This document shows, piece after piece, positions 42,518 through 47,525 of a DNA stretch of 64,000 nt. The position numbers and the translations under genes are program-made. The notes beneath the pieces are model-generated. The model was not told the DNA's origin and searched no databases. It was given only the letters and a program-made list of their open reading frames with translations. The stretch comes from Escherichia coli (GTDB lineage: Bacteria > Pseudomonadota > Gammaproteobacteria > Enterobacterales > Enterobacteriaceae): assembly GCF_041886205.1 (NCBI RefSeq), contig NZ_CP169029.1, one strand, 5' to 3'. Within the stretch, counting starts at the first letter, position 1, and each line of letters opens with the position of its first letter.

Positions 42518-42903
42518 TGTTACTTACCTGTACGCATTCTTTCGAATTTAGTGTTATCAGATAAGTTTGGTTGAGATTTTTAGAATTTGAGAAATTTCAG
42601 ACAGGGATGAAAAGGGCGCTAACCGCCCTTGATTAAATTCTGTCAGGCGAGTTTTGCCTGATTGATTTGACTCAGTGGCTCATTGACATCGAAAACTTTG
42701 GCGACAACTTCCTCAACGCCGAGATTTTTAAGTCGGGCAGTATGTTTTTCCAGATAGGCAAGGGCGCTTTTTTCATCAGTAAAAAGATAGATCCCACCGG
42801 CTTCGTGGTTCTTTTCACTTTCTGTCCATACCTTCCACAGAAAACCAGGTTCCTGATTAATTGAACCGCCCCGGGTTTCCTGGAGAGTGTTTTATCTGTG
42901 AAC

Positions 42904-43794
42904 TCAGGCTGCCAGATCATCGTTTCCGATGGAAGCATAATAAGCTTTTTCTGCTTCTGCCGGAGGAGTATGGCCCAGCCTTTCCAGCAATCGTCGATTG
43001 TTATACCAGTCCACCCACGTGAGTGTGGCCAGTTCCACTTCTGCACGGTTTTTCCAGCTCTTACGGTGTATTACCTCCGCTTTGTAAAGACCATTGATGC
43101 TCTCCGCCATCGCGTTGTCATACGAGTCGCCTGTACTTCCTGTTGATGCCAGTAATCCGGCTTCCTTAAGCCGCTGTGTGTAGGCCAGCGATACATACTG
43201 AGAACCTTTATCACTGTGATGGACCGTGCCGGACGGTCGACGGGCCCATAACGCCTGCTCCAGTGCATCCAGCACGAATGTCGTTTCCATGGACGATGAG
43301 ACCCGCCACCCCACGATGTATCCGGCAAACACATCAATGATGAACGCCACATAGACGAAGCCCCGCCATGTGCTGACGTAAGTAAAATCAGCCACCCACA
43401 GCTGGTCAGGTCGTTCTGCCACGAACTGACGGTTTACGCGGTCGCCTGCGGCAACGGCTTTCCGGCTGATGGTCGTACGGACCTTTTTACCCCGGAGAAC
43501 ACCGGCAAGTCCCATAACCGCCATGAGACGTGCCACAGTGCATCTGGCCACTCTGATACCTTCCCGTAACAACTGACGCCAGACTTTACGCACACCGTAT
43601 ACCTTGTGATTTTCATCGTATACGCGCTGTATCTCTTTCTTCAGCCAGTCATCGCGCTGCGCACGGGCACTGCGTTTATCCGGATGATGTCGCTGTTGCT
43701 GACAGTGGTAATACGTTGACGGGGCAATATGCAGTTCGCTGCATAGCGGTCCGACCCCGTACTGCTCACGCAGCTTATCCAGCAGTGGCATCAT
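42904..43794 (-). CDS. IS3-family transposase OrfB (DDE integrase core)
   Basis: 296-aa ORF; overlaps orfA 3' end at an A-run consistent with -1 frameshifting. Confidence 0.88.
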
Positions 43795-44117
43795 TTTTTC
43801 CAGAGGCGGTCGAACTCCGCCTTCGCAAAATAAGCGGAAGCCTGGCGAAGGATATCGTTACTGCGGCGCAGTTCACGATTTTCACGTTCCAGCTCTTTCA
43901 GACGCTGACGTTCAGCGGTGGTGAGCCCTCCATCACCGCCCCCGGTATCCCGCTCATGCTGGCGAACCCAGACACGCAGAGTCTCCGGCGTACAGCCAAT
44001 CTTTGGAGCAATGGAACAAATTGTCGCCCATTGTGAGTCATATTCGCTCTGACTTTCCAGAACCATACGGACTGCCCGTTGACGGACTTCGGGGGAAAAA
44101 CGAGTATTTTTAGTCAT
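43791..44117 (-). CDS. IS3-family transposase OrfA (HTH)
   Basis: 108-aa [26 protein letters not shown]... Confidence 0.88.
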
Positions 44118-44368
44118 CCTGTTTACCTCTTTCTCAGGAAGTTTAGTCTCCAGGATTCCCGGGGCGGTTCAAATCGACTCAGCAAGCGGTTTAAGCTGCT
44201 CAGCCATTGCGTCGCCAAATGGGCCATTAAAAGCAAAATGAAGTTGTAACAAAGTTGCCATAGCGATTCTCCTTCTGATAACGCATACGAAGACAGTGTA
44301 AATCTTTTAACGTATTGGATACAGAGAAGAAACAGAGGGAAAAAGGAGAAGACCAGATTAAGAAAATC

Positions 44369-44445
44369 TGGTGCGTCCGAGTGGACTCGAACCACCGACC
44401 CCCACCATGTCAAGGTGGTGCTCTAACCAACTGAGCTACGGACGC
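44369..44445 (-). tRNA. valW: tRNA-Val (GAC anticodon)
   Basis: Reverse complement reads GCGTCCGTAGCTCAGTTGGTTAGAGCACCACCTTGACATGGTGGGGGTCGGTGGTTCGAGTCCACTCGGACGCACCA; valV/valW assignment by position; +/-1 nt. Confidence 0.9.
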
Positions 44446-44449
44446 AGGA

Positions 44450-44526
44450 TGGTGCGTTCAATTGGACTCGAACCAACGACCCCCACCATGTCAAGGTGGT
44501 GCTCTAACCAACTGAGCTATGAACGC
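44450..44526 (-). tRNA. valV: tRNA-Val (GAC anticodon)
   Basis: Reverse complement reads GCGTTCATAGCTCAGTTGGTTAGAGCACCACCTTGACATGGTGGGGGTCGTTGGTTCGAGTCCAATTGAACGCACCA; +/-1 nt. Confidence 0.9.
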
Positions 44527-44833
44527 AACGTTGTAGGTGACAACGGGGACGAATATTAGCGGCAGAGTGGGAAGGTGGCAAGAGGCAAAACGTAATTTTC
44601 TGCGCTATTTCGACCGTTTGCAGAGCTTTTAAGCAAATTGGCTATATTTTGTTGATTTGCAAGGGCGATTTTTATTCAGGATCGCATTTACATCTGATAC
44701 AACCCAATAATTCGTGTATCAGAGTTTAAACAGAGTTGTTTGCCACCATCTCAAATCTGTCGTGGATAAATCCTCCGTAGCCTTTACACTTAGGTAGCAA
44801 TAAAGGCACACAGATGCAGCAAAGGAATAAATC

Positions 44834-46090
44834 ATGGGATCTGATGCGAAAAACTTGATGAGCGACGGGAATGTGCAAATTGTTAAGACCGGCGAGGTCA
44901 TTGGCGCGACGCAACTTACTGAAGGCGAGTTGATTGTTGAAGCTGGCGGAAGAGCCGAAAATACCGTGGTCACGGGGGCTGGCTGGTTGAAAGTGGCAAC
45001 CGGTGGGATCGCCAAATGTACACAGTACGGTAACAATGGCACGCTATCGGTCAGCGACGGTGCCATTGCCACAGATATTGTTCAGTCCGAGGGAGGCGCA
45101 ATTAGTCTCTCTACGCTCGCTACGGTTAATGGCCGCCATCCCGAAGGTGAATTCAGCGTTGATCAGGGTTATGCCTGCGGTTTGTTGCTGGAAAATGGCG
45201 GTAACCTGCGTGTACTGGAAGGACATCGCGCGGAAAAAATCATTCTCGATCAAGAGGGCGGCCTGTTGGTTAATGGGACAACCTCAGCGGTCGTGGTAGA
45301 TGAAGGTGGTGAATTGTTGGTGTATCCAAGTGGGGAAGCCAGCAATTGTGAGATTAATCAGGGCGGCGTTTTTATGCTGGCCGGGAAAGCCAGTGATACG
45401 TTGCTTGCTGGTGGCACCATGAATAATCTCGGTGGTGAAGACTCTGACACTATTGTTGAGAATGGATCCATTTATCGTCTGGGGACGGATGGCCTTCAGC
45501 TCTACAGTTCCGGTAAGACGCAAAACCTGTCCGTGAATGTGGGTGGTCGGGCTGAAGTGCATGCCGGTACGCTGGAAAATGCGGTAATACAAGGTGGGAC
45601 AGTGATCCTGTTGTCACCCACCAGCGCGGACGAAAATTTTGTCGTAGAGGAAGATCGCGCACCGGTTGAACTGACCGGGAGTGTTGCATTACTGGACGGC
45701 GCTTCAATGATTATTGGCTATGGCGCAGATCTGCAACAATCAACGATTACTGTACAGCAGGGCGGTGTATTGATTCTCGACGGCAGTACGGTAAAAGGTG
45801 ACAGTGTCACTTTAAATGTTGGTAACATCAATCTAAATGGCGGAAAACTGTGGCTAATCACTGGTGCGGCAACGCATGTGCAACTGAAAGTGAAACGCCT
45901 GCGCGGAGAGGGAGCGATTTGCCTGCAAACCAGTGCGAAAGAAATTTCACCTGACTTCATCAATGTGAAAGGGGAAGTTACCGGTGATATACACGTTGAG
46001 ATAACAGATGCCAGTCGGCAAACTCTGTGTAACGCACTGAAACTACAGCCAGACGAAGACGGGATTGGCGCAACGCTCCAGCCTGCGTAA
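44834..46090 (+). CDS. ydhQ: autotransporter-passenger-like (AIDA-type repeat) protein without evident beta-barrel
   Basis: 418-aa ORF, Gly/Thr/Val-rich degenerate repeats. Confidence 0.85.
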   Translation: MGSDAKNLMSDGNVQIVKTGEVIGATQLTEGELIVEAGGRAENTVVTGAGWLKVATGGIAKCTQYGNNGTLSVSDGAIATDIVQSEGGAISLSTLATVNGRHPEGEFSVDQGYACGLLLENGGNLRVLEGHRAEKIILDQEGGLLVNGTTSAVVVDEGGELLVYPSGEASNCEINQGGVFMLAGKASDTLLAGGTMNNLGGEDSDTIVENGSIYRLGTDGLQLYSSGKTQNLSVNVGGRAEVHAGTLENAVIQGGTVILLSPTSADENFVVEEDRAPVELTGSVALLDGASMIIGYGADLQQSTITVQQGGVLILDGSTVKGDSVTLNVGNINLNGGKLWLITGAATHVQLKVKRLRGEGAICLQTSAKEISPDFINVKGEVTGDIHVEITDASRQTLCNALKLQPDEDGIGATLQPA

Positions 46091-46130
46091 AAACACAGGC
46101 GCAACCCGTGAAGGTTGCGCCTTGTCTTTA

Positions 46131-47525
<1,395 letters not shown>

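Follow-up and report, generated by a model that had tools for sequence, protein, structure and literature searches.

YdhQ of Escherichia coli carries the AIDA-type repeats of SAAT (Ag43/AIDA-I/TibA) passengers, and the linker and barrel of an autotransporter are cleanly absent from it. Here, we determined its architecture, fold class and missing export parts, its conservation and selection, and the boundaries of the DNA insert in which it lies, working from a 64,000-nucleotide stretch of E. coli DNA (NZ_CP169029.1, referred to as the window). On balance, we favour the reading that YdhQ is a passenger domain retained as a soluble cytoplasmic binding or scaffold protein.

Earlier descriptions cover the gene, the family of its repeats and the missing recognisable leader (RefSeq and NCBIfam names; PMC13101318). 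The present analysis adds the exact truncation point, the insertion boundaries, the restriction to one genus, the selection estimates and two near-invariant blocks. The matter is of some weight, as ydhQ is a gene of unknown function in essentially every E. coli genome sampled. The label of adhesin or autotransporter is common for this gene and is misleading, because YdhQ lacks two of the parts that define the family. A mislabelled ydhQ affects counts of virulence factors and adhesins, the choice of surface-display 'anchors' and the use of 'neutral' integration sites.

Gene model and regulatory surroundings of ydhQ

The ydhQ coding sequence spans positions 44834-46090 of the window on the plus strand and encodes 418 amino acids plus the stop codon from an ATG start. 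In the RefSeq annotation, the identical stretch holds this reading frame under the name 'ydhQ: AIDA repeat-containing protein', in the gene order ydhR, valVW, ydhQ, mdtK, ribE, cfa. The NCBIfam equivalog NF007409 (PRK09945) matches YdhQ over positions 1-418 of 418 with 939 bits (cut-off 830), and the protein belongs to this curated family of its own.

A Shine-Dalgarno sequence, AAGGAA, is situated about 6-7 nt 5′ of the ATG and is followed by an in-frame TAA at 44828-44830, two codons before the start; this whole region (44822-44833, plus strand) is invariant in five Escherichia lineages. Due to this stop codon, the N-terminus of YdhQ cannot be extended, which rules out a hidden leader. At the other end, a hairpin scan revealed a strong hairpin at 46097-46122 that begins 7 nt past the ydhQ stop and scores as an intrinsic terminator on both strands, common to ydhQ and the convergent mdtK. 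The latter gene, encoding a MATE efflux pump (46131-47504, minus strand), has its stop codon at 46131, leaving only 40 bp, occupied by the terminator, between the ydhQ stop and mdtK. In the locus of an orthologue with 72% identity, a different hairpin is found at the same place.

Family resemblance alone would suggest that the gene model is wrong and that ydhQ is a conventional autotransporter whose leader or barrel lies in another frame, upstream, downstream or beyond a frameshift. This is excluded by the sequence itself: besides the in-frame stop ahead of a start with a good Shine-Dalgarno sequence and the 40 bp filled by the terminator, a blastx search of both ydhQ flanks against 104 full-length relatives returned no remnant of a leader or barrel (best E = 1.7). 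Furthermore, the 418-residue model holds in all Escherichia species sampled, and the NCBIfam equivalog is itself 418 positions long. A hidden leader or barrel was rejected on the in-frame stop and the empty flanks, and a wrong gene model can be regarded as effectively refuted.

Upstream, ydhQ is divergent from the valV/valW tRNA-Val(GAC) pair (44369-44526, minus strand). A simple scan called no sigma-70 promoter for ydhQ on the plus strand. The spacer between ydhQ and valV contains the block GCTTTTAAGCAAATTGnCTATATTTTGTTGATTT (44625-44660), which is invariant in five Escherichia lineages and lies inside the Escherichia-specific segment described below. The same scan made no call at this block, which could serve as promoter of ydhQ or, for the divergent valVW tRNAs, as upstream activating sites of their promoter. 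In the ydhQ leader, the Shine-Dalgarno sequence, the start region and three GGA motifs are invariant among the five lineages compared, and the three motifs fit the reported status of ydhQ as a CsrA target (PMC5389547). In addition, an FlhDC site in the ydhQ-valV spacer has been listed by genomic SELEX (PMC9962212).

Repeats, domains and missing export parts

An earlier note on this DNA had described the product as built of degenerate repeats rich in Gly, Thr, Asn and Val. This is borne out by the composition of YdhQ (Gly 15%, Leu 11%, Val 9%, Thr 8%, Asn 6%) and by its GG dipeptides, which recur at intervals of 16-20 residues. Against shuffled sequences, self-identity at lags 17 and 19 gave a z of about 3, indicating that the repeats are real, though degenerate. 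The Pfam family AIDA (PF16168) matches three stretches of the protein with an E value of 5.6e-28, and TIGR04415 scores 39 bits (cut-off 30). Pfam, NCBIfam, homology to Ag43 and the structural model together place the AIDA-type beta-helix rungs at approximately residues 25-260 (44906-45613, plus strand). A partial pertactin/autochaperone-like domain follows at residues 329-403 (45818-46042, plus strand), where Pertactin (PF03212) matches with 26.3 bits (cut-off 22) over profile positions 1-78 of 121.

Neither an ESPR nor a PF03797 barrel was matched by Pfam in YdhQ, the latter being absent even at E<=1. Together with the terminator 7 nt past the stop and the flanks free of remnants, this confirms that the protein has no C-terminal beta-barrel, as the earlier note had it. 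The same note had seen no N-terminal signal peptide, and this holds as well. The N-terminus, MGSDAKNLMSDGNVQ..., is polar and net acidic, with one basic and two acidic residues among the first 12, and in its MGSDAKNL start seven of eight residues are invariant, the exception being A/E at residue 5. No hydrophobic region of a signal peptide was found in the first 60 residues, where the maximum of the Kyte-Doolittle 10-residue window reaches 1.19 versus 2.66 in the OmpA/Ag43 leaders. SignalP 6.0 has also been reported negative for YdhQ (PMC13101318), in line with the missing ESPR and the upstream in-frame TAA.

Two-partner secretion (type Vb, TpsA) finds no counterpart either, as no TPS-domain family appeared among the Pfam matches at E<=1, and the neighbours of ydhQ are tRNA-Val, ydhR and mdtK, with no adjacent TpsB transporter gene. 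YdhQ thus has the passenger of a classical type Va autotransporter and neither its signal peptide nor its barrel. It should not be filed as an autotransporter nor assumed to be an adhesin; the accurate label is 'autotransporter-passenger-like protein'. With respect to other functions, no PADLOC-DB family of anti-phage defence matched YdhQ at E<=0.01, and the matches from a PHROG scan are families of unknown function.

Predicted fold and point of truncation

The structure of YdhQ was modelled with AlphaFold2 from an alignment of the Escherichia orthologues and matched segments of distant relatives. The model is entirely beta, with a mean pLDDT of 91.1 and a pTM of 0.88, and only residues 1-6 and 264-274 are of low confidence (pLDDT below 50 for 264-274). 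A Foldseek search against the PDB gave the Ag43 structures and TibA as the best matches, with E values from 1.6e-12 to 3.7e-9. Modelling, which the earlier note had proposed as a check, therefore returned a passenger-type beta fold, and no enzymatic fold competes with the Ag43 and TibA matches. Combined with the PF16168 match, the all-beta model and these passenger fold matches uphold the proposed likeness to AIDA-type beta-helical passengers. By sequence, residues 26-214 of YdhQ align with residues 202-393 of Ag43.

The full-length relatives recovered in a whole-library search share the order AIDA repeats, Pertactin (profile positions 1-121) and PF03797 barrel. Residue ~395 of YdhQ aligns 385-401 residues before the C-termini of four complete relatives, in three of which Pfam confirmed the full Pertactin domain and the barrel. 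These extra residues indicate that YdhQ corresponds to a distal passenger part plus about two-thirds of the autochaperone cap. Beyond the pertactin match, the tail (residues 402-417) forms two further strands in the model, with a pLDDT of about 85.

Conservation and selection in Escherichia

The gene is present in 5425 of 5426 complete E. coli genomes, 5424 of which carry it at >=80% coverage and >=95% identity. In E. coli AR_0013 (locus L021, 3305-6222), ydhQ is split by the insertion of an ISEcp1 (IS1380-family) transposase; among the matches listed, this is the sole best match that is not full-length in the 5425 genomes. The 418-codon frame is also intact in the E. coli alleles that diverge most among those sampled. 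Orthologues of 418-419 amino acids occur in E. ruysiae, E. whittamii, E. marmotae, E. albertii and the 72%-identity lineage, and direct inspection placed the gene beside mdtK in E. albertii, E. marmotae and the 72%-identity lineage. In the latter, YdhQ is 72% and MdtK 95% identical to its E. coli counterpart. One contig labelled Escherichia coli SCPM-O-B-8794 (NZ_JAATUR010000015.1, locus L011) carries a ydhQ that is only 87% identical to that of the window, the same value as for E. whittamii and Escherichia sp. E1V33, and may represent a cryptic-clade Escherichia labelled as E. coli.

The ratio dN/dS (omega) was estimated by the Nei-Gojobori method. For ydhQ it amounts to 0.07-0.13 between species (dS 0.8-2.8) and 0.04-0.14 within E. 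coli, 5-10 times higher than for its neighbours mdtK, ribE and cfa (0.011-0.034). The constraint is unevenly distributed along the protein. The most constrained block, residues 94-135 (TLATVNGRHPEGEFSVDQGYACGLLLENGGNLRVLEGHRAEK; 45113-45238, plus strand), has 41 of 42 positions invariant across the genus and an omega of 0.025, and its hairpin-containing motif also occurs in Ag43 and distant relatives. The acidic junction loop at residues 261-280 (SPTSADENFVVEEDxAPVEL; 45614-45673, plus strand) is disordered in the model, yet near-invariant across the genus (17 of 20 positions), with an omega of 0.028. Both values fall in the range of the housekeeping neighbours. The least constrained part is the pertactin-like domain at residues 329-403 (omega 0.27).

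Judged by its presence and by these substitution patterns, ydhQ is not a decaying fragment and is kept intact by purifying selection throughout Escherichia. It might nevertheless be a functionless relic, a truncated autotransporter gene that is still transcribed and translated and is tolerated because it is harmless. Consistent with such a relic, ydhQ represents only the middle part of a typical autotransporter, strains deleted for it serve as neutral controls, and an occasional disruption by an insertion sequence is tolerated (ISEcp1 in AR_0013). The omega values bear on this in both directions: they are several-fold above those of the neighbours, and reach 0.27 in the pertactin-like part, but they remain at 0.07-0.13 overall and at about 0.03 in the two blocks. 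Moreover, with an interspecies dS of about 1 or more, an unconstrained frame of 418 codons would close, whereas this one is open in at least six lineages and about 5400 genomes. The Shine-Dalgarno sequence, the start region and the motifs of the 5′UTR are conserved, the terminator is maintained through a different hairpin sequence in the divergent lineage, and the protein is detected in proteomes. The selection data make a relic unlikely, and we give this reading little weight.

Origin of the insert

Alignment of the spacers delimits an Escherichia-specific segment of about 1.53 kb (44602-46130), comprising ydhQ, 232 bp upstream of it and the terminator. Its left boundary is formed by the valV/valW pair with the tRNA promoter region (44527-44601), and its right boundary by mdtK. 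The segment replaces about 77 bp of the mdtK-tRNA spacer found in Enterobacter and Salmonella. In the Salmonella enterica and Enterobacter loci examined, ydhQ is absent between mdtK and tRNA-Val, and the two tRNA-Val genes known from the window lie about 150 bp past mdtK.

The boundaries and content of the segment indicate that ydhQ was acquired as a single gene, on that side of valVW where the promoter lies. In Salmonella enterica (locus L017, 9514-17362), the SPI-2 type III secretion genes, in the order ssaU to ssaV as judged by Pfam families, stand directly 3′ of the tRNA-Val pair; in Enterobacter (locus L018, 9528-11399), ydhS occupies that side. With SPI-2 or ydhS on one side and ydhQ on the other, the valVW neighbourhood took up different DNA on each side, depending on the genus. 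A shared slot for ydhQ and SPI-2 was considered and rejected, because SPI-2 is located 3′ of the tRNA-Val pair and ydhQ on the promoter side towards mdtK.

Beyond Escherichia, a whole-library HMMER search for orthologues gave only autotransporters at <=38% identity, and a scan of genome contigs found ydhQ in Escherichia only, with a sensitivity limited by its use of exact peptide patterns. In these searches, no protein from outside the genus combined the architecture of YdhQ with true orthology. Intermediates at 54-73% identity are short fragments, and those inspected (P0078 and P0027) proved to be frameshifted or error-ridden assemblies of E. coli ydhQ. P0057 (422 amino acids), despite a similar domain string, is no orthologue but a fragment from another E. 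coli autotransporter cluster.

Several features were observed in the DNA around the tRNA-Val pair on the side away from ydhQ. An IS3-family element of about 1.31 kb (42862-44171) interrupts ydhR about 29 codons in, with orfA at 43791-44117, orfB at 42904-43794 and the ydhR stub at 44172-44265, all on the minus strand. The ydhR flanks of the element overlap by 3 bp, representing the target duplication. Strain LHM10-1 has an intact ydhR, and its ydhQ region otherwise matches the window at 100% identity. A match to Rfam RF02194 ('HPnc0260 bacterial antisense RNA'), with 112 bits (gathering score 59), covers positions 44245-44407 on the plus strand, in antisense orientation to the ydhR 5′ end and to the tRNA-Val next to it.

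Cellular location and probable role

In the explanation that we propose, YdhQ is a stand-alone SAAT-type passenger of about 13 beta-helix rungs and the first two-thirds of an autochaperone cap, with neither a Sec leader nor the linker and 12-stranded barrel. An insert of about 1.5 kb, with ydhQ as its single gene, would have reached the site between mdtK and valVW in an ancestor of Escherichia, and the gene has been held by purifying selection since then. Unable to cross the inner membrane, the protein would fold and stay in the cytoplasm, where it probably offers a soluble acidic beta-solenoid as a binding surface or scaffold, rather than acting as a self-exported adhesin. We infer that its native function is intracellular and exerted by binding, with the near-invariant block at residues 94-135 and the acidic loop at 261-280 as the likely functional surfaces.

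Published work has located leaderless YdhQ in the cytoplasm. In a 2026 surface-display study, a YdhQ fusion without a signal peptide was fluorescent, cytoplasmic and devoid of extracellular agarase activity, while surface display was reported once a foreign signal peptide had been added (PMC13101318). As that study does not explain how the barrel-less YdhQ would cross the outer membrane, we treat the display claim with caution. The protein has also been detected in proteomes, including quantification in a shotgun data set (PMC6561319). A further possible marker of a cytoplasmic protein, though a weak one, is the cysteine content of 1.2%, by which YdhQ ranks in the top 5-9% when compared with the 104 exported relatives (median 0.5%).

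Lateral 'Velcro' contacts are typical of self-associating autotransporters. In a rival reading, YdhQ would mediate adhesion or aggregation from outside: it would leave the cell by a non-classical path, through lysis, in outer-membrane vesicles or with the aid of another autotransporter or of the Bam/TAM machinery, and would dock through such contacts on the Ag43-type helices of neighbouring cells. The closest folds, TibA and Ag43, are indeed those of self-associating adhesins. However, YdhQ has no leader, TPS domain or barrel, and its near-invariant MGSDAKNL start is polar and acidic. We know of no barrel-independent route for type V passengers. Diversifying selection is usual for exposed passengers, and no sign of it is seen in ydhQ, with a gene-wide omega of about 0.1. 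Nonetheless, a wastewater-isolate study states, citing Roux et al. 2005, that ydhQ is needed for early adhesion, and the study counts ydhQ among its positively selected genes, with selected sites as for exposed proteins (PMC9110714). YDHQ is also listed among the COG3468 members seen in vesicle proteomes. The surface display reported with an exogenous signal peptide would agree with a role outside; in the same study, the protein without one remained cytoplasmic and its agarase fusions inactive (PMC13101318). Taken together, an extracellular role seems doubtful to us.

Regarding possible partners of a cytoplasmic YdhQ, a proteome-wide tagging survey saw the protein co-purify with EF-Tu (PMC2672614), and the RNase-sensitive UV-crosslinked fraction of another study included it among 17 unannotated proteins (PMC11066096). 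Both are matches from high-throughput screens prone to false positives and serve as leads, not as evidence of a mechanism. Since YdhQ contains 51 acidic and only 24 basic residues, its strong net negative charge makes it an unlikely direct binder of RNA. Given these two leads, a role at the translation apparatus comes into consideration: a type V passenger turned cytoplasmic in the ancestor of Escherichia may have been exapted for a binding role there, through residues 94-135 and 261-280, which we put forward as a tentative possibility. That ydhQ deletions are in routine use as neutral controls or sites of integration implies that they have no obvious phenotype in the laboratory. Should the intracellular reading hold, the passenger of a secretion system can be repurposed as a cytosolic protein. 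The two near-invariant blocks offer concrete targets for mutagenesis.

Comparison with known autotransporters

Residues 25-260 of YdhQ are homologous to passenger residues about 201-393 of Ag43 (Flu/Ag43a and Ag43b; PDB IDs: 4KH3, 7KOH, 7KO9 and 7KOB), with an identity of only about 20% over the structural alignment. Ag43, a processed and surface-displayed protein, is equipped with a full autochaperone domain in addition to a 52-residue leader, a linker and a PF03797 barrel, whereas YdhQ lacks every export part. YdhQ scores 92.7 bits against the Ag43/Cah equivalog NF033177, far below its cut-off of 1200.

TibA (PDB ID: 4Q1Q), like Ag43 a self-associating adhesin, shares with it the place of closest fold to YdhQ. 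TibA and AIDA-I, the glycosylated SAAT adhesins of ETEC and DAEC, are full autotransporters encoded beside a heptosyltransferase gene (tibC and aah, respectively), while no such gene flanks ydhQ. The AIDA-I model NF033176 gives 55.7 bits for YdhQ (cut-off 1200).

The nearest relative outside Escherichia, P0026, is a protein of 1534 amino acids with an ESPR leader and 38% identity to YdhQ. It belongs to the long ESPR-AIDA-AC_1/Pertactin autotransporters (P0026, P0081, P0129, P0157 and P0158), whose identity to YdhQ is <=38%. Relatives of the P0026 type and YdhQ share the type of repeat, the pertactin-like junction and a loop at the position of residues 261-280, but the complete relatives have leaders, barrels and many more repeats. 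The P0026 locus (L015, Logan SRR33454298, 1848-13933) also holds a second AIDA-type autotransporter, a protein with a NEL (novel E3 ligase) domain and one further protein, both of the latter with faint LRR matches, a cluster that, from its gene content, looks like a virulence-type island.

Within E. coli K-12, YcgV offers a further comparison. This AIDA-type adhesin homologue of 955 amino acids resembles YdhQ in having no confident signal peptide, and its derivative YcgV-T, from which residues 1-621 were removed, has been used as an anchor scaffold consisting of the translocation domain only (PMC13101318). In the same study, cytoplasmic folding was seen for the YdhQ fusion but not for that of YcgV (PMC13101318).
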